Positions 14,411-59,852 of a stretch of 64,000 nt of DNA are shown here, in pieces. The position numbers and the translations under genes were made by a program. Under the pieces are notes generated by a model. That model saw nothing but the letters and a program-made list of their open reading frames with translations. It was not told where the DNA came from and made no database searches. Where the stretch lies: positions 32,001 to 96,000 of the forward strand of contig CAVRDX010000001.1 of NCBI GenBank assembly GCA_963719945.1, in the 5' to 3' direction. This DNA is from an uncultured Thermoplasmata archaeon (GTDB lineage Archaea > Thermoplasmatota > Thermoplasmata > UBA10834). How positions within the stretch are numbered: the first letter of the stretch is position 1; every line of letters starts with the position of its first letter.

Positions 14411-15287
14411 CCCTCCCTATGAGCTCCTTCATGTGGAGCACGTCCCAGTAGGTGAATATAGGACCGTCGATGCAAGTGTACAGATATTCTATGGCACAGT
14501 GCCCGCACTTGCCGACCCCGCACTTCATCCTCCTCTCTAGGGTCATCACGATCTGGTGCTTCGGTATACCGAGCTTCACCAGGTTTTCCATCACGAACTT
14601 GTACATGACTGGCGGACCGCACACCGCCGCGTATGTGTTCTTCGCGTCGACCGGTCCTAGGTCCTTGAACAGAGTCGTGATCAGTCCGACCTTCTCGGTC
14701 CACTTGCCCGTGTCGTCCTTGTCCACGGTCAAGAGACAGTTCAGGTCCTCCCGCTCCTTCAGCTGGAAGAACTCATCCCTGAAGAGCATCTCTCCCGGGT
14801 TCTTCGCGCCGTGCAGGTAGGTCACCTTGCCGAACTTGTCCCTGTTGTCCAGGATGTAAAGGAGCAGCGACCTCAACGGAGCGACTCCCATGCCTCCCGC
14901 GACGATCATTATGTCCTTGCCTTCCATCTTTTCGATGGGGAAGGTGTTCCCGTAAGGTCCTCTTATCCCGATCGTCTGGTTCTCCTTCAGTCCGAAGAGG
15001 GATTCCGTCAGGGTTCCCGTCTTCCTTATGCAGAACTCCAGGAGCCCCGGTCTCGACGGCGTGGACGATATGCAGAACGGTGCCTCACCCTCTCCAGGAA
15101 CGGAGAGCATGACGAACTGCCCTGGAAGATAACTCATCTTCAACGCCTCGTCCACATCAACGGGCCTCACCTGGAAGAAATTCACATCGCTGGTCAACGG
15201 GTACTTGCGGACGATCCTCCACATGTCCGGCTGGTAGGGGTTCTCATCTACCTCCCTGTCGTCCAGCACTACGCACAGTCTCTTCAC
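14385..15287 (-). CDS. hydG: Group 3b hydrogenase gamma subunit (FAD/NAD(P), 2Fe-2S)
   Basis: PGQF, RGPYG, AGGMG.AP, CGPP.M, ERRMKCGVGKCGHC....C.DGP; GTG start overlapping the hydB stop. Confidence 0.9.
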   Translation of the reverse strand: MKRLCVVLDDREVDENPYQPDMWRIVRKYPLTSDVNFFQVRPVDVDEALKMSYLPGQFVMLSVPGEGEAPFCISSTPSRPGLLEFCIRKTGTLTESLFGLKENQTIGIRGPYGNTFPIEKMEGKDIMIVAGGMGVAPLRSLLLYILDNRDKFGKVTYLHGAKNPGEMLFRDEFFQLKEREDLNCLLTVDKDDTGKWTEKVGLITTLFKDLGPVDAKNTYAAVCGPPVMYKFVMENLVKLGIPKHQIVMTLERRMKCGVGKCGHCAIEYLYTCIDGPIFTYWDVLHMKELIGRGVSDKIIA

Positions 15288-16309
15288 TTGCCCACCTCCT
15301 GTTCCTTCAACGCCTGCGAAACGGTCTCGACATTGATGTCGACCGGGCAGGTCGAGACGCATCTTCCGCAGCCAACGCAGGCCGGCTTCCCGAACTCGCC
15401 GATGTATGCCTGCAGCTTGTGAGTGTACCAGAGCCTCAGTCTGTCGGCTCTCTTGTCCCTGAAGTTGTGCCCGCCCGCGACGAGCGAGTACTCCCTGAAC
15501 ATGCAGCTGTCCCAGGATCTCTCCCTGGTGCCCTCCACGGTCCCCAGCTCTACCTCGTCAACCACGTTGAAGCAGTTGCAGGTCGGACAGACCATGGAGC
15601 ACTGTCCGCATGACAGGCATTTCTCTCCCAGCTCCTCCCATATCGGGCTGCTGTAGGCGAGCTCGAATATGTCTGGCATGCCGGTGAAATCCACCTTCGC
15701 CTTGAACTGGGAGTTCTTCCACTTCCTGTACTCGGTGTAATTGAGGATGTCGTTCTTGTCCAGGTCCCTGCTGAACAGCTCGGGCCTCATCCTGATGAGA
15801 TCGTGGCCCCTGCTTGAGCCGACCCAGACCAGGTAGAACATCTTGAGGTCCGTGAAGAACAGATCGAAGCCCTCGGCGACGAAATCAGTGTTCGTCGCGA
15901 AGCACATGCACTTCTCATCCGGGATGCAGCTGTGACCCATGAGTATGGTCTTCTCCCTGCGCTCGGCGTAATACGGGTCCTTGTAGGTCTCCAGGAAGAG
16001 CTTGTCCATGATCAATATCCCGTGCACGTCGCATGGGTGCAGACCGAACAGAATCTTCTTCGAGACATCGCCCGTCCTCTCGACGAACCCTTCCTCGTCA
16101 AAGTCGAACATAGTGAACTTTGGCGGGTATAGGAACTTCTTCGGCGGGATGACCGTCCTGGTCGCCTTCAGATCCATTTGGGAGAGCGATTCGACCTTCG
16201 CGTAGGTGGTCTTGCCTCCCTTGCTCGCAGGACCCCATAGCTCTCCCCATTCCTTGGCGCTCTCGAGGAAAGCGGGAAGGTCCTCTTTCTTCATCTTCAA
16301 AATCATCAT
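15284..16309 (-). CDS. hydB: Group 3b hydrogenase beta subunit (4Fe-4S)
   Basis: CLSCGQCSMVCPTCNC and CVGCGRCVSTCP. Confidence 0.9.
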   Translation of the reverse strand: MMILKMKKEDLPAFLESAKEWGELWGPASKGGKTTYAKVESLSQMDLKATRTVIPPKKFLYPPKFTMFDFDEEGFVERTGDVSKKILFGLHPCDVHGILIMDKLFLETYKDPYYAERREKTILMGHSCIPDEKCMCFATNTDFVAEGFDLFFTDLKMFYLVWVGSSRGHDLIRMRPELFSRDLDKNDILNYTEYRKWKNSQFKAKVDFTGMPDIFELAYSSPIWEELGEKCLSCGQCSMVCPTCNCFNVVDEVELGTVEGTRERSWDSCMFREYSLVAGGHNFRDKRADRLRLWYTHKLQAYIGEFGKPACVGCGRCVSTCPVDINVETVSQALKEQEVGK

Positions 16310-49564: not shown

Positions 49565-51598
49565 ATGGGGGCAGAACGAGCAGAGGATGGGGCCGGGTCT
49601 CACAACCATCCGTCAGGGGACCATCATGCGACGTTTCGATTCTTGGTGGAGAATTCCAGGGATGTCATATTCAGGCATCTGGCGGTCCCCGAACCCCGGA
49701 CGATATACATCAACCCTTCATGCCAAACGTTGCTAGGCCATTCCCCGAAGGATTTCCATGCCAACCCGAACCTTCTTCCGAGCCTGTTTCATCCCGATGA
49801 CTTGCCGATATTCCATGGCCTCCTCGATGGCAGTGTGCCGCATACCGAGCCCGCTGTTGCCCGTATGATGCGAAAAGACGGTTCCGTCCTATGGACGGAG
49901 CATAGCGCAATCCCTCTGAGGTCCGAAGACGGTCAGATCGTGGGGATCGACAGCTTCTGCCGTGATATCTCTGAGCGGATGCGTTCGTCGCAGGAAGTGA
50001 TCGCACGCGGTAGGATGATCGAGGATCTTCTCCAGAGGACCAAGAATCTGATTGAGAGCGCTCCCATGGCCATAATCGAGCTGGATTCGGATCTTAGGAT
50101 AATCAACCATAATTCACACCTTTTACAGTATATGTCTCCAGGGGGACCTGATAGTGGCGTCATAGGAAAGCCGTTCATGGATGTCTTCCAGGCCGCGGAT
50201 ACTGGGTCATTGATGGATATGGTCGAATCGTGCCGTGTCACGAAGGGATCCACACACAACAGGTTCCTTCCGATCAGAATAGTTGCCGATGACCAACCCG
50301 CAAAGGCTATGGTGTATGATGTCAGCATAGCACCCCTGATTGCTCCGGACCGCTCTGTCTCAAGCATCTTGGTGATGATGAGGGACATGTCCGAACTGGG
50401 GGAACTCGATAGGGAACGCTCATCGATGACCGACCTGCTATGGGTGATGTCCTCCGTGGAGAACATGCAGGAACTCCTGGACAATGCCATCCGCGTGCTG
50501 ACGACCTCGTTCGGTGCCGATGCCGGCATGATATTCTTGATGGACTCCGACTTTGGCAGGTTGTTCCTCGAATCCAAGTTCGGTCCGCTCGAAGGCATAC
50601 CAATATCTCTGGATGATTCCCGCGGAATCGAGTCGACCTCGCTATTTCACTCTCCAGACTCTTCTGGTTTTGAATCCGTGGGGTGTGCTGGGTCGCCTCT
50701 CGTGTCGGAGGTCATACAGTCCTCAGGCATGTCCTCTGGGATATGGGCGCGAATGACTTCAGGGCCACATGTGCTTGGATATGTTCTGCTGTTGTCCCAG
50801 GACCACTCACCGTTCGACGACCAAGCTAAGATATTCTTCAAGATACAGGTGAACACGCTAGCATATGCTGTCCAGAGGATGCAGATGCTGGGCGAGGCGG
50901 AACGAGCAACGGGAGAATCGGCGACCTACCTCGATCTATTGTGCCACGATATAGCAAACTACTCCTCGGCATTGATGTCCTTCAGTGAGCTCATCGAGGA
51001 TAGTGCCGAAGCACCAGATGTAGTCCGGCAGCACGCACAGGATATGAGGAAACAGGTACGAGTCATATCCACGATGATTGAGAGGCTGCGCAAGCTGACC
51101 GGGGTTAGCCATCAGCCCACTGCTATGGTCGAGGTCGATCTCGCGCAGTCAATCATCGATCTCATCGCAAGGCAGATGGATGGCGCGGAGGATGACCAAG
51201 CGATCTCCATCGATTTCGATCCCGCCACGCCGCATGCCATCGCACTGGCTGATTCAAAGATTGAGGTGGCCATTGAGAACATACTGGTGAACTCCATCGA
51301 GAACACCATCACCGAATCCATAGATGTGACCATATCTTTGACAGAATCTCCTGATCGACATGGCTATTTGGAGGTTGTCATAGAGGACAGGGGGACCGGC
51401 ATTCCAGACGATATCAAGTCAAACCTGCTCAAGCCGTCAAAGGATTACTGGGAGATCAAGCGCGGTTTTGGCATGGGCCTCTTCATCTCGAAGATGATCA
51501 TCGAGCGTTCGCGCGGCCAGATATCCATATCCGATCGCGTGCCGGGCGATTGGACACAAGGCACAAAGGTTTCGATATTGCTTCTAAGAGGTGGCTAG
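49565..51598 (+). CDS. PAS/PAS/GAF sensor histidine kinase
   Basis: PAS (FHPDD, RKDGS..W); H-box CHDIAN; IEDRGTGI; GFGMGL. Confidence 0.88.
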   Translation: MGAERAEDGAGSHNHPSGDHHATFRFLVENSRDVIFRHLAVPEPRTIYINPSCQTLLGHSPKDFHANPNLLPSLFHPDDLPIFHGLLDGSVPHTEPAVARMMRKDGSVLWTEHSAIPLRSEDGQIVGIDSFCRDISERMRSSQEVIARGRMIEDLLQRTKNLIESAPMAIIELDSDLRIINHNSHLLQYMSPGGPDSGVIGKPFMDVFQAADTGSLMDMVESCRVTKGSTHNRFLPIRIVADDQPAKAMVYDVSIAPLIAPDRSVSSILVMMRDMSELGELDRERSSMTDLLWVMSSVENMQELLDNAIRVLTTSFGADAGMIFLMDSDFGRLFLESKFGPLEGIPISLDDSRGIESTSLFHSPDSSGFESVGCAGSPLVSEVIQSSGMSSGIWARMTSGPHVLGYVLLLSQDHSPFDDQAKIFFKIQVNTLAYAVQRMQMLGEAERATGESATYLDLLCHDIANYSSALMSFSELIEDSAEAPDVVRQHAQDMRKQVRVISTMIERLRKLTGVSHQPTAMVEVDLAQSIIDLIARQMDGAEDDQAISIDFDPATPHAIALADSKIEVAIENILVNSIENTITESIDVTISLTESPDRHGYLEVVIEDRGTGIPDDIKSNLLKPSKDYWEIKRGFGMGLFISKMIIERSRGQISISDRVPGDWTQGTKVSILLLRGG

Positions 51599-52765
51599 TT
51601 GCCACCGAGGATACTCATAGTCGATGACGAGAAGCTTATAGTCCAGATACTCAAGGACACACTCTCTTTGAAGGGTTTCGACGTGGTGGGGTTCGCTTTC
51701 GACGGGGACTCTGCGGTCAAGAAATATTTTGAACTCTCACCCAGACCTGACCTGATCATAATGGACCACAGGATGCCGGTCAAGAGTGGCATCGAAGCGA
51801 TGGATGAGATACTCGCCACTGACCCGTCGGCGAGGGTACTGTTCCTTAGCGCAGATGCGAGGATTCGCGACATCGCATTGGCCAGGGGTGCCATCGGATT
51901 CATCTCGAAACCCTTCGAAGGCTTGGACCTATTACGTGCAATCAAGAACGCTCTCGCGGAACAGAGGGACAAATCTCTCTCAGGATTCTCTATTCCAAAG
52001 GCCGTCAGTTCCTTATTCAAGCAGGGATACGAGTTGGGCGTGGAGGTCGGCTATTATGGACACATGGAAACGGTCGGATGGGTCAGCTCAAAACGAAAGG
52101 AACTGCTTTCTCTCGCCCAAGGATTGGAGGTCCTGCGAGAATACAATTCGGAATACGATAGAGGCAAGGAGGATGGGCGACACAGACGCGTGAAGCCCGA
52201 AGTATTGCGCAGAGAGGATCGCGGTGACGGCCACGCGATGTCTGGGGGAGGTGGTGGCATGGGCACGCGGGCAGAGGCCACCTCTTTCGTTGGGGTAGGC
52301 TCGATCTCTGATCCGTCATCTGCTCGACAATTGATATCGGAAGCTCCACTTCTTGTTCAGGCGGATATTCAAGGACTAGCTTCAATGTTCGTCAGATATC
52401 ATGATTCGTCTGTCGGGAGCGTGCAGGAACTCTATGCAATGCTCGAATCGATGGTCCCATTGAGACCGAATGACATCTCTGGAAATGGCAGGGAAATCAT
52501 TGATCGTGGTCTACAAGCTTTGGTCAGAAGTGGGTGGGCGACTTTCTACTCGGTGGACCTGATCGACATGGCTAGCGGAGAGGCCACCATTAGCATCGAA
52601 TCTGTGTTCGCAAGATGCTGTGGCCGTTTCGACCATACAATATGTAGGTTTCTTGAGCCGATATTAGGTGAGATGCTTACACGAGCAGTTGGTCGCAAGG
52701 CAACTGTTAGGGAGATATCTTGCATTGCTACTGGGTCGAATGCATGCGTATTCTCAACCGTATGA
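51599..52765 (+). CDS. Response regulator with receiver domain and C-terminal V4R-like domain
   Basis: ILIVDD, IMD..MP..SG, SKPF; C-terminal C....G....E..C...G...C.F. Confidence 0.85.
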   Translation: MPPRILIVDDEKLIVQILKDTLSLKGFDVVGFAFDGDSAVKKYFELSPRPDLIIMDHRMPVKSGIEAMDEILATDPSARVLFLSADARIRDIALARGAIGFISKPFEGLDLLRAIKNALAEQRDKSLSGFSIPKAVSSLFKQGYELGVEVGYYGHMETVGWVSSKRKELLSLAQGLEVLREYNSEYDRGKEDGRHRRVKPEVLRREDRGDGHAMSGGGGGMGTRAEATSFVGVGSISDPSSARQLISEAPLLVQADIQGLASMFVRYHDSSVGSVQELYAMLESMVPLRPNDISGNGREIIDRGLQALVRSGWATFYSVDLIDMASGEATISIESVFARCCGRFDHTICRFLEPILGEMLTRAVGRKATVREISCIATGSNACVFSTV

Positions 52766-52831: not shown

Positions 52832-52903
52832 GGGCCGATAGATCAGCGGAAGATCGCCTGCTTTGCAAGCAGGAGGTCAGGGGTTCAAATCCCCTTCGGT
52901 CCA
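52832..52903 (+). tRNA. tRNA-Ala(TGC)
   Basis: Acceptor GGGCCGA/TCGGTCC with G3:U70; anticodon arm CCTGC-TTTGCAA-GCAGG; GGTTCAAATCC. Confidence 0.96.
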
Positions 52904-53040
52904 CACCTACGCATAGCCAGACAAATATTCTTTTTTCAACCAGAAGTTTCTGCTCCGATTGCGGTTTTGAATGTGCCAGGGAATCCGGATCCCTGAAAAG
53001 GTCATTCGACCCATCAATCGCTGCCTGCTCTTTTGCTCGG

Positions 53041-53331
53041 CTAGTATTTCTCCGTGGTATTCGTGCTATTGTGGTCCATGCCTTTCGATACTAGAGGCGT
53101 TGCTGACGCATCCCTATAAATGCATCTCTGTCCAAATGTGCTCCTGAAGTGTTTTGCTGTGAAGGATATGCCAGATATCGTCCAGCACACCCGTCCGCCG
53201 TTCTTGCCTCCATTCATATCGTCAGCAATGCGATAGGTTGATGCAGGACACGCTGCCCGGCATCCTACCTTCGTACCGCCAGGCTCCTTCCCACAGCTCA
53301 TGAATTCCCAGCAATTCGACACTGTATCCAT
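53041..53331 (-). CDS. Two-CW-domain-like small Cys-rich protein, C-terminus degenerate
   Basis: NCWE...CG.EPGG......CPA.......NGG.NGGR.CW. Confidence 0.65.
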   Translation of the reverse strand: MDTVSNCWEFMSCGKEPGGTKVGCRAACPASTYRIADDMNGGKNGGRVCWTISGISFTAKHFRSTFGQRCIYRDASATPLVSKGMDHNSTNTTEKY

Positions 53332-54240: not shown

Positions 54241-54356
54241 TTCGGAGAGGAGCGATGATCCCTCCAAAAGAATAACGGATTTGCTTTTTTTCAATCCGTC
54301 TCCTCGGCGAAGATGTCCTAACAATGGCATCTTGGGGTGCGAGCCCTCACAGGGTC
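54241..54356 (+). repeat. Island repeat family A, copy 1
   Basis: 69/85 ungapped identities (54261-54345 vs 55251-55335, hand count); exact 19-mer CGTCTCCTCGGCGAAGATG. Confidence 0.9.
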
Positions 54357-54433
54357 ATCAATGACGAGAATAGGCTCATAATCAATAGAAAGGTCCTTAA
54401 CCTCGTTATGCTGATTTGGGTATGGAGGAAACA

Positions 54434-55225
54434 ATGGCTGAAGTGGGTAAGTTATATGCGAAGGGACTTCACAAGCGATTCTCATATTTGGCTACCTGGC
54501 TGCCCAACACCAATTTGATGCTGGGCGACGTGGGACGATTGCACGGAGAAATCTTCACAATAGAAACGACTCTTAAGGAACTCGGCGTGCCATTCCATGT
54601 TAGGAAAGGCAAGAAGCCAGTCAAGTTCAACTACACATCACAGTCCGGGATTTCGGTGAACGCCAAGGCGGCGGGGCAGGTGGCCACCGGAACGACTCTG
54701 CCTCAGGCTCAGGCAGGTGTTTCTATCAAATTCAGCAAGGAAGGGGCATTCTTGTTCCAAGCGACCGAGTGCAAGGTGGATGAGATTGAAGACAAGGCAG
54801 AGCTTGGCACAGCAATTATCGCACTGCTGATTAACAAGAAGTGGAATCCTGATTGGGTCGTTGTTGACACTCTAGTTAGGGCAGGCTCTGCGACAATTGC
54901 CGTATCAAACTCCCGTAACGCTGCTCTTGACCTTACCGCAAAGACGGATGTTAAGATAGCTAACCTCGCCAATCTCGATGCAGGATTAAACATGAGCCAC
55001 CAAAGCGGTGATGTCATTCAATTCATAGCTGAGAAGGGTTTGTCTCCGTTATACAAGCTCTCTCGCGTGAAGCAATCGTGGATTCAGAAACTGCTAAACC
55101 AACCCGGTGAATTCGACCGTTACGCGCTCATTGGAACCTACAAGAATAAATCGATAGAATCTCCGGATAAGAAAATTCCCAAGGGAAAACCACTTGAGAC
55201 AGTTACACCGCGCTGGGATCAGTGA
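54434..55225 (+). CDS. Putative gasdermin-like pore-forming protein (263 aa)
   Basis: GGAGG RBS; YLATWLP....LGDVG N-terminus; two amphipathic beta-hairpin regions; WVVV..L..A strand; short C-terminal tail; no signal peptide or TM helix. Family assignment from pattern recognition only. Confidence 0.62.
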   Translation: MAEVGKLYAKGLHKRFSYLATWLPNTNLMLGDVGRLHGEIFTIETTLKELGVPFHVRKGKKPVKFNYTSQSGISVNAKAAGQVATGTTLPQAQAGVSIKFSKEGAFLFQATECKVDEIEDKAELGTAIIALLINKKWNPDWVVVDTLVRAGSATIAVSNSRNAALDLTAKTDVKIANLANLDAGLNMSHQSGDVIQFIAEKGLSPLYKLSRVKQSWIQKLLNQPGEFDRYALIGTYKNKSIESPDKKIPKGKPLETVTPRWDQ

Positions 55226-55230
55226 AGAGA

Positions 55231-55370
55231 TTTGCGAGGGGCTACAAACCCCTGCAAAAGAACAATGGGTTTGCTATCTCTCAATGCGTCTCCTCGGCGA
55301 AGATGCCCTGAAAAGGGTATTTTGTGGTGCGAACCAGTCAGGTTCGTGCTCTCTTTTCCCACAGGGTCCA
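55231..55370 (+). repeat. Island repeat family A, copy 2
   Basis: Starts 6 nt after the stop of the gasdermin-like gene; aligns to copies 1 and 3. Confidence 0.9.
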
Positions 55371-55443
55371 CTATTTTGCTGGAAATTGGCAAAGCAGTAA
55401 TTCTCCTTACCACCAGACCTTGAAAAGATACTCATTGAATTGT

Positions 55444-57650: not shown

Positions 57651-58139
57651 TCAGAACGAGCCGAGGATGGTGGTGGCGAACTCATCTACATCTCCCTGCC
57701 AGCCTTCCTTCAGCGGCCCCTTCATCGTCTCCGCTGATACTAAGAATATCTTGTCGGCAACTTTCACCAGCCCCTTCTCCTTCAAAATCTCATCCAGAAC
57801 CGGTACGGTCTTCCTCCATCGATTGAGCTCTTCCTCTGTCGGCATCCGTCCGGTCTTCTTATCTGGTGCTGCGTCTCCGTGGGTCGCGAATATGGCATAC
57901 TTTGTTCCCGACGCAAGTGAGACCTTTTTGATGAAACGTCTCATGCTCCCTAGTGGCCCGCCGAATCGCGTAGGTGACCCAAAGATGTACAGGTCTGCGA
58001 GAGCCAGCTCCTTAGGTTTCGATTCTCTGATATGATGCACGTTCACCTGATGGCCTTTTGTCTCCATGACCCGTCGCAACTCATCAGCGACCTTCGCTCC
58101 GTTCCCAAACTTCGAGGCGTGATATAGCTCAATCTTCAT
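57651..58139 (-). CDS. Flavodoxin-family protein
   Basis: Y.SKFGNG..VA; FGSPT; AIFAT; GPL.EG. Confidence 0.82.
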   Translation of the reverse strand: MKIELYHASKFGNGAKVADELRRVMETKGHQVNVHHIRESKPKELALADLYIFGSPTRFGGPLGSMRRFIKKVSLASGTKYAIFATHGDAAPDKKTGRMPTEEELNRWRKTVPVLDEILKEKGLVKVADKIFLVSAETMKGPLKEGWQGDVDEFATTILGSF

Positions 58140-58312
58140 GAGAAATCCCTTCCTAAATATCGAATGCAACTAATCACTCATAATGATATCTTGCAGGCCC
58201 CCTGATCGGAAAACAGCCAGGTGGCATGAGTGAGATTCCTTTCGATCCAACCCATGAGCGAAGCCATTAAGTCATCCAGAACGATTCAGAGTTCTGGTTT
58301 GGGGAATTGGCG

Positions 58313-58805: not shown

Positions 58806-58942
58806 GACTTCCTTGATTGAAATTGGAGAAATGGGACGGGGTCTACTCTAACTCTTAATCATTTGCCTTGGCGAAGTGCTCTGACAAGGGCATTTTGAGG
58901 CGCTGGCCTGCAGTTTCGTGCTCCACAATCTCATAGGGCCCA
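58806..58942 (+). repeat. Composite island repeat: family B 5' part joined to family A copy 3
   Basis: TTGATTGAAAT..GA.AA.GGGA, then CCTTGGCGAAG-TGCTCTGACAAGGGCATTTTG...TTCGTGCTC...CATAGGGCCCA matching 55292-55370. Confidence 0.8.
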
Positions 58943-59122
58943 ATAAGCGGTCATATCCGTTCTAGAGGGCGCAGATGCTTCTCATGGATACAGCACTAAA
59001 TTGTGATTAAGAACACGAATTCTGAGACGGCCAATGGTATCCATATTCCCTCATTTGCCTTCCTTTGTATACGAATAGCTTAAATCTTCAAAGACGATTA
59101 TTATTTGGAGGATGGCGATGCT

Positions 59123-59305
59123 ATGAACATTCGGTGGTCATTGTCACGTCAATCGTGGATTATGCTTGTTGCCATCGATGCATGTGGGTTCATCACCATT
59201 GGCAAAGGTATAATTATTCTTGGACAAGAGTGGTATTATGGCGTTGCGGCAATAGTGACAGGCATTGCCCTGCTTTGGTACAATACACCGCCGAGCAAGA
59301 ATTAG
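59123..59305 (+). CDS. Small 2-TM protein
   Basis: GGAGG RBS; two hydrophobic helices. Confidence 0.55.
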   Translation: MNIRWSLSRQSWIMLVAIDACGFITIGKGIIILGQEWYYGVAAIVTGIALLWYNTPPSKN

Positions 59306-59360
59306 AGGAACCGGTTCAACAGATCTCTCCAAGATTCATAGGGTGAGTAGGCATGAAGCG

Positions 59361-59852
59361 ATGATTTCCCCACGATTTATTGATGTTCTGAGAAAGTTGA
59401 GCGGTCAACTGGAGGACCAGGGTGTGGTCTGGGCGGTCGGTGGTAGCTTGGGACTCGCGCTCAGAGGTGCTAGTGTTGATCCACGTGACATTGACATAAT
59501 TACAGACAGGGTTGGCGCATACCACATTGAGCGCATCTTCTCAGATGCAGTGATTTCTCCAGTCTCGCTCAAGACCAGCAACAAGATTCAATCACACTTT
59601 GGTGCATTGAACATAGATGATGTCAAGGTCGAGATCATGGGCGATTTTCAGATTCGCCTGGAAGACGGGACTTGGCAACCCCCTCCCGATTTCACGAGGC
59701 TGAAACAGTTGGTCCTGCTCGAAGGGATGTCAATTCCAGTCCTCTCGCTGATATGGGAGTATGATTCATATTCGAAACTAGGCAGGACCGATAGAGCAGA
59801 ATCCGTGATGGCAATCATTGGACGCCAAGCCGTTATGGAACGTCTATTGTGA
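59361..59852 (+). CDS. Nucleotidyltransferase-family protein
   Basis: WAVGGS..LALRG....P.DIDI.T signature. Confidence 0.82.
   Translation: MISPRFIDVLRKLSGQLEDQGVVWAVGGSLGLALRGASVDPRDIDIITDRVGAYHIERIFSDAVISPVSLKTSNKIQSHFGALNIDDVKVEIMGDFQIRLEDGTWQPPPDFTRLKQLVLLEGMSIPVLSLIWEYDSYSKLGRTDRAESVMAIIGRQAVMERLL

Follow-up and report, generated by a model that had tools for sequence, protein, structure and literature searches.

A divergent gasdermin gene between tRNA-derived repeats in a Thermoplasmatota archaeon

The window, a 64,000-nucleotide stretch of DNA from an uncultured Thermoplasmata archaeon, carries the gene for a true but very divergent gasdermin (P0001; 54434..55225, +). According to the reading that we favor, and to which we give about an even chance, the protein would be a functional stand-alone autoinhibited gasdermin that serves as an abortive-infection effector, its linker being cut in trans, plausibly by a viral protease. 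The nearest bacterial relatives carry an FGG motif in the linker and adjoin a gene for a C39-fold protein. Both are gone from the archaeal clade, while the gasdermin itself has stayed under purifying selection.

The open reading frame starts with ATG and encodes 263 amino acids of a Cys-less 'WLPN..LGDVG' subfamily. A Shine–Dalgarno sequence, GGAGG (54424..54428, +), lies five bases before the start codon. The frame, its ribosome-binding site and the absence of a transmembrane helix or signal peptide had been described in the original prediction; all the motifs quoted there were found in their order, and the highest hydropathy over 19 residues was 1.0. Searches returned 55 homologs at 38–82% identity, and the family comprises 1,688 clusters (at 50%) with E ≤ 0.001, or 1,098 with E ≤ 1e-10. 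Together with dN/dS values of 0.2–0.3, these counts mark the frame as a conserved gene and not a chance one. A short leader, consisting of an A-rich stretch, CTTA and then GGAGGAA before the ATG, is common to five clade members and could possibly be the gene's own promoter. The protein has a basic surface with a net charge of +10 and a single Cys, Cys113.

Structure prediction and fold searches, proposed with the original claim of a gasdermin fold, bore that claim out: the closest folds were gasdermins rather than an unrelated fold. With the AlphaFold model of P0001 (mean pLDDT 83.9), Foldseek ranks 1–16 were all gasdermins, seven of them at E ≤ 1e-3, and the top match was the Vitiosangium oligomer 8SL0 (E = 1.5e-5). 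A VIA fold search likewise placed gasdermins at ranks 1–12 (8SL0: Z = 10.3, rmsd 9.2, 157 aligned), followed by CDCL/CDC relatives (Z 5–6) and then background, the first non-pore-former having a Z of 4.1. The high rmsd to 8SL0 probably reflects the extended hairpins of the model, which is nearer to active pores than to inactive monomers (rmsd 5–17 Å) and does not resolve the inhibited geometry.

Family profiles agree with the fold searches. As a single query, P0001 had no meaningful match in Pfam, PADLOC, NCBIfam or the PDB. In the PDB, a profile of 49 family homologs best matched 7N50, the bGSDM of Bradyrhizobium (E = 0.017), and the PADLOC bGSDM model matched 23 of the 49 members (best 1.8e-5). 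The nearest Atlas clusters carried PF26164 on 12–33% of their members (score 0.98, recognition value low). Homology to known gasdermins appears weak but consistent at the sequence level, emerging from family profiles only. More distant family members adjoin CHAT proteases, the classic arrangement, which further supports the gasdermin identity. The family had no relative among viral contigs and no viral fold match; a GTDB pattern scan yielded a single short match of 32 residues in an Acidobacteriota MAG, which was left unused. Most of the subfamily (more than 1,000 clusters at E ≤ 1e-10) lies under the thresholds of current gasdermin models.

Two membrane-inserting β-hairpins are predicted from the model and from hydropathy. 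The first (residues 63–112; 54620..54769, +) is built in the model from strands 63–68, 73–78, 95–100 and 106–118, with a low-confidence tip at 82–89; the second (residues 163–199) is encoded at 54920..55030 (+). Polar and hydrophobic faces alternate in strands 63–79, 94–112 and 163–175 (+2.7/−2.3 in the last of these), and the amphipathic alternation of strand 183–199 is weak. A disordered Lys-rich linker follows (residues about 223–249; 55100..55180, +), with pLDDT below 50 at 226–228 and 230–244. It lacks FGG and is presumed to be the cleavage loop. The chain ends in a C-terminal docking strand of the form [LF]ExVxP (LETVTP, residues 254–259; 55181..55210, +), the presumed autoinhibitory peptide. 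Residues 251–260 have a pLDDT of 92, with a model strand at 254–257, and E255, V257 and P259 are conserved in 47–48 of 52 close homologs (about 90%). An exposed loop and a short C-terminal peptide keep bGSDMs inactive (10.1101/2021.06.07.447441). The short C-terminal inhibitor anticipated for P0001 has its counterpart in the disordered linker and the conserved strand after it, which by model and analogy would act in the same manner.

The missing N-terminal Cys had been presented as a peculiarity relative to the bacterial examples. The residue is indeed absent from P0001, but so it is from 172 of 178 family members, only six of which have a Cys within the first 12 residues, and is special neither to this protein nor to archaea. 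Johnson et al. had already purified a Cys-less bGSDM, that of Gillisia (10.1101/2021.06.07.447441), so the absence is no bar to P0001 being a gasdermin. The family-wide distribution indicates that the lack of the Cys is older than the transfer to archaea and did not arise as an adaptation to them. A gasdermin that does not depend on fatty-acylation may, however, have been able to move into an archaeon and remain viable there.

The linkers of 38 of the 52 close homologs contain [FY]GG, typically 22 residues from the C-terminus. A survey of homolog neighborhoods, also suggested with the original prediction, found CHAT genes beside distant members and a C39-fold gene beside the FGG gasdermins. 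Among the FGG loci with informative flanks, 14 of 15 have a neighbor from one unannotated C39/papain-fold family; among the 14, one match is weak and partial, at a contig edge, and the exception is L038. Examples are L015:5837-6964, L017:5843-6955, L019:7776-9047, L020:7777-8871, L021:7777-8499, L023:7805-8965 and L095:1456-2547. Partner proteins are fused to ankyrin, TPR or unknown domains, and no gasdermin–partner fusion occurred among the retrieved proteins. Partner queries against PADLOC, PDB sequences and Atlas features gave no match.

As modeled (pLDDT 86), the partner has a papain-like fold nearest to the double-glycine C39 peptidases PCAT1 and ComA (Foldseek probability 0.98, E = 8e-3; VIA Z = 7.0, rmsd 3.3, 112 aligned; Pfam C39_2 E = 0.004). 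The fold scores are modest (Z 7.0, TM 0.4–0.5), and nearly all top rows are papain-like. The partner shares with the PEP domains of such peptidases His and Asp in the C39 positions (His164 and Asp180, kept in 15 of 15 covering rows) and a Gly-Gly motif in its presumed substrate, the gasdermin linker. Unlike them, it has its own near-invariant xFGG at the N-terminus, no ABC transporter fusion and no conserved Cys in the N-terminal 74 residues or before position 99 (16 aligned), the region of the canonical C39 nucleophile. Other Cys residues are conserved, C99 in 15 of 16 and C189 in 14 of 16. Retention of His and Asp without the canonical Cys suggests that the partner is a pseudo-protease or else cuts at Gly-Gly in a non-canonical way. 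When the partner was compared with the host C39 peptidase by hhalign, His and Asp were aligned at a probability of only 0.3%.

For one bacterial pair, P0028 and residues 18–232 of P0196, the predicted complex scored 0.46 compared with 0.01 for the best control, which is weak support. Of 80 solved complexes, 58 reached the mark used, as did 2 of 110 mismatched pairs; only seven of the 80, but both mismatches, reached it with values of 0.60 or less. Contacts agreed between runs to at least 43%, with a partner pLDDT of at least 79. Literature searches found no pairing of a gasdermin with a C39 protein, nor a C39-fold protein among bGSDM partners in the papers searched. The partner that P0001 is missing is most likely the C39-fold protein and not a caspase, CHAT or trypsin-like protease.

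Other arrangements were seen in the wider family. A CHAT protease–SIR2-like fusion adjoins a family gasdermin at L040:3-1799. At L024:7913-10261, two related unannotated genes, in which no protease domain was detected, lie between the non-FGG gasdermin P0052 and a long TPR protein. P0149 (618 aa) and P0169 have a family gasdermin in frame behind an N-terminal domain resembling a non-specific endonuclease (HRGH), either as a fusion or by read-through.

The Thermoplasmatota host proposed originally is in agreement with the nearest named uS7 sequences, from a Methanomassiliicoccus sp. MAG (89%) and a Candidatus Thermoplasmatota archaeon (79%). The host genome (G000) measures 1.78 Mb and is 87% complete. 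A quick maximum-likelihood tree (SH-aLRT only, midpoint root, excluding P0111–P0195 and proteins outside 225–300 aa) placed P0001 in a clade of eight members (SH-aLRT 96) that branches from deep within the FGG proteins. FGG is missing from every member, two of which have LGG, and the partner gene is absent from the five informative clade loci (the window, L001, L003, L012 and L094). Archaeal origin is backed by neighboring genes for three other members: P0038 comes from a genome of the same genus as the host, and the neighbors of P0002 and P0003 are 72–86% identical to host genes. P0005, P0013, P0039 and P0045 are without such backing. The simplest history would be one transfer from bacteria, its direction suggested by the nesting among FGG proteins, followed by loss of the partner and of FGG.

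In the pairs compared, the gasdermin core is under similar constraint with and without a partner. Core dN/dS was 0.20 for P0001/P0002 (0.066/0.337) and 0.32 for P0001/P0003, compared with 0.23 (0.146/0.644) for a partnered bacterial pair. These ratios indicate that purifying selection on the gasdermin persists after loss of the partner and FGG and is not relaxed. The gene is present in 2 of 46 genomes of the family and in none of 400 other genomes of the phylum that were searched. Directly upstream of P0002, the closest homolog, lies a Sir2-domain gene (L001:3932-5047; PADLOC SIR2, E = 2e-10), with which it possibly makes up a small defense cluster. Two HExxH (M48-like) membrane protease-like domains (L012:4042-6084 and 14982-15728) were seen 3–5 kb from the gasdermin of G005.

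No caspase-like, trypsin-like or CHAT protease stands beside the gasdermin in the window, as had been noted from the sequence. Nor did the 87%-complete host genome match C14, CHAT or Trypsin_2. A six-frame HMM search of the same genome for the partner family found nothing better than E = 3, compared with 1e-58 to 1e-109 for true partners under the same HMM, and only a single gasdermin gene was found. A subtilase is encoded 5 kb away (60336-63530), beyond the last repeat; it has a signal-peptide-like N-terminus, as do all three subtilases of the genome and its only C39 peptidase. The subtilase and the C39 peptidase were considered as activators and rejected, being exported-looking and unlinked in the other clade loci. 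The window neighbors of the gasdermin encode small membrane proteins and a flavodoxin, with no recognized defense gene among them.

The gasdermin is the sole gene between two direct repeats 990 bp apart, a unit of about 1 kb that the original prediction had not mentioned. The repeat has an arm of about 100 nt and, after it, a tRNA-Ala(CGC) 3' end with up to 17/17 identical positions. Copy 1 (54264..54363, +) is internally deleted and keeps the conserved arm and the tRNA 3' end. Copy 2 (55245..55384, +) begins about 20 nt past the gasdermin stop codon, matches the tRNA 3' core at 15/17 positions and includes a terminator-like hairpin (55326-55350). Copy 3 (58826..58945, +) is more degenerate (nhmmer E = 2e-15). 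The island is anchored on the left by tRNA-Ala(UGC) (52832..52904, +), identified by ARAGORN and Rfam. Next to it, a C-terminal remnant of a tyrosine integrase (53044..53175, −) shows 46–48% identity over 44–46 aa (E about 6e-6) to the integrases of G000 C2 and G006. The last 44 integrase residues are in frame with a Cys-rich N-terminal part (CWEFMSCG) in a 96-aa ORF (53041-53331, −). GC content falls here from about 0.55 to 0.47.

The att-like repeat occurs in 14 of the 46 family genomes, accompanies tRNA-Ala and a tyrosine integrase in relatives (G006, G029), and had no match in Rfam. Fragments of it lie beside the gasdermins of G005 and L001 as well. For three further genes of the island, homologs sit elsewhere in sister genomes, in arrays delimited by the repeat; such sharing of cargo between different loci would be indirect support for recombination at the repeats. 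The sequencing runs found comprised one DNA run with a small share of this genome, whose reads did not cover the gasdermin unit, and no RNA run. An integron cassette array was rejected: the nearest upstream ORF was co-oriented with 14 of 27 repeats and opposite to 13, and the repeat core is the tRNA-Ala 3' end. The lack of orientation bias points to accretion at att sites and not to an integron. Direct repeats that contain the end of a tRNA gene, in an element family that has a tyrosine integrase, are also the features of CIMEs and tRNA-site accretion, and we regard the repeat-bounded units as CIME-like. As in CIMEs and tandem accretions, each unit is without an integrase and has at its borders direct att-like repeats made up of an arm and a tRNA 3' end, and in relatives a tyrosine integrase stands at the head. 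They differ in their very small size (1–4 genes), in having a tRNA-Ala(CGC) core next to a tRNA-Ala(UGC), and in that their excision is putative.

Several other features of the region were recorded. Repeat arrays are also found in G000 C1 at about 479,100, 711,830 and 901,700, and, in both G000 and G006, at proS, where no tRNA is nearby. The island flavodoxin (57651-58169, −) is 86% identical to L003:5199-5699, which lies directly downstream of the gasdermin P0003. Just past the third repeat is a nucleotidyltransferase gene (59265-59852; aminoglycoside-2''-adenylyltransferase Pfam, E = 1e-21). Upstream of tRNA-Ala, 49565-52765 encodes a PAS/GAF histidine kinase and a receiver::V4R-like response regulator.

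The C-terminal peptide of bGSDMs keeps the monomer soluble; cutting of the linker leads to oligomerization, a β-barrel pore and cell death. Beyond the fold, architecture, partner loss and selection described above, cleavage, a pore, a trigger and an antiviral role can be proposed for P0001 by analogy. The tail would hold it as a soluble inhibited monomer until a protease acting in trans, rather than a cognate one, cut the fast-evolving Lys-rich linker. The cutter would most plausibly be a protease of the infecting virus, with the gasdermin as a tripwire, or else a host protease induced by infection. Cut P0001 would then oligomerize into a lethal pore and abort the infection. Docking to the membrane would rely on the basic surface in place of a palmitoyl group, which may have let the gene work in an archaeon.

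The patchy distribution of a mobile single gene, as known for defense genes, was counted in favor of an effector, as was the PADLOC-matched Sir2-type gene directly upstream of P0002; the absence of a recognized defense gene flanking the gasdermin in the window was counted against it, as was a model closer to active pores than to inactive monomers. Trans-cleavage is favored by a linker that diverges faster than the core (52% versus 86% identity between P0001 and P0002). Nevertheless, linkers diverge fast in partnered bacterial members too (38% identity), so this divergence is not specific to a tripwire. At 87% completeness, an activator could also be missing from the assembly. A wider scenario is offered tentatively, as possible but doubtful. 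A Cys-less bacterial gasdermin clade would be controlled by the C39-fold partner through the shared FGG, possibly without canonical catalysis. One lineage would have passed into Thermoplasmatota on a tRNA-att cassette of a single gene and, having lost both the partner and the motif, become a sensor-effector that is cut directly by viral proteases and forms pores in ether lipids without palmitoylation.

The same data bear on four other explanations. The gene might be an inert or decaying passenger that entered the tRNA-att array alone, its partner left behind, and that persists only because the tail keeps the gasdermin off. The loss of both partner and FGG, the decayed state of the island with its integrase remnant and the rarity of the gene would fit. 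We nevertheless consider this unlikely, as all eight clade proteins are full-length, dN/dS remains at 0.2–0.3 over synonymous distances from 0.3 to more than 2, equal to that of the partnered pair, and the ribosome-binding site and leader are conserved. An equally improbable course is activation without cleavage, in which binding, for instance of a viral protein, or an altered redox state of Cys113 would displace the tail. That residue is present in 47 of 52 close homologs but absent from many distant ones (70 of 126), and TrichoGSDM offers a precedent for activation that needs no cleavage (PMC13475620). Were the C39-fold partner a pseudo-protease that grips the FGG linker and leaves it uncut, such a mechanism would be an extension of the ancestral system. 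The partner's retained His164 and Asp180 with no conserved N-terminal Cys, its own N-terminal FGG and the weak P0028/P0196 complex prediction point in this direction, whereas C99 and C189 could be catalytic and FGG resembles the Gly-Gly cleavage site of C39 peptidases, whose fold is the one nearest to the partner's.

It seems quite unlikely that P0001 is activated by a host protease, dedicated or housekeeping, whose gene lies elsewhere, be it in the assembled or the unassembled part of the genome. Five independent clade loci are without an adjacent partner, and a single-gene mobile unit would hardly depend on an unlinked accessory gene; on the other side, the genomes are incomplete (87% for G000, 65% for G005) and distant family members do pair with CHAT proteases. 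Very unlikely, in our judgment, is a competition toxin released on lysis, opened by extracellular proteases in the manner of CDCLs/pyroptolysins and aimed at neighboring bacteria. CDCL and CDC structures rank next after gasdermins in the fold search (Z 5–6), the three exported-looking subtilases of the genome include one 5 kb away, and gasdermin-fold toxins are known in bacteria and archaea (10.64898/2026.10.05.756811). P0001, however, has no signal peptide, targeting domain or immunity gene, its architecture is that of the cytoplasmic bGSDMs, and the subtilase is unlinked in other clade loci.

Archaeal gasdermins have already been counted in surveys, in fewer than ten archaeal taxa (bioRxiv 10.1101/2024.10.26.620412; PMC9079055), and the literature search turned up no paper devoted specifically to one. 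The presence of a gasdermin in archaea, a protease-less locus and a Cys-less bGSDM are not new. As far as the literature found goes, the FGG/C39-fold partner is new, as is an archaeal lineage kept under selection after the loss of that partner. The locus bears on whether a non-palmitoylated gasdermin can perforate archaeal ether-lipid membranes and act without a cognate protease, and also on how the FGG/C39-fold pair of the bacterial relatives is switched on.

The closest known systems are the bGSDMs (Vitiosangium 8SL0/7N51, Runella 7N52 and Bradyrhizobium 7N50; PF26164, NF051890 and PADLOC bGSDM; Johnson et al., bioRxiv 10.1101/2021.06.07.447441; PMC10153256). P0001 resembles them in fold, size and its two hairpins, in the short C-terminal peptide after an exposed loop and in weak family-level homology. 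It differs in its low identity (9–16%), in the family-wide absence of an N-terminal Cys and in its archaeal host. An adjacent protease is lacking in P0001 and present for 43 of 50 bGSDMs; the other seven in the founding study had no neighboring protease (10.1101/2021.06.07.447441). The nearest relatives of P0001 pair with a C39-fold protein, unlike the bGSDM partners known from the literature searched.

Fungal HET-Q1 and RCD-1 and the Trichoplax TrichoGSDM share only 5–11% identity with P0001. HET-Q1 has a linked protease, RCD-1 is an allelic pair and TrichoGSDM is a disulfide dimer, whereas one gasdermin gene was found in the host genome. Like P0001, all three are single-domain gasdermins, and the RCD-1 and TrichoGSDM pores are among its fold matches. 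The HET-Q1-like inhibitory peptide of 38–43 residues is similar in length to the roughly 40 residues that follow the core of P0001.
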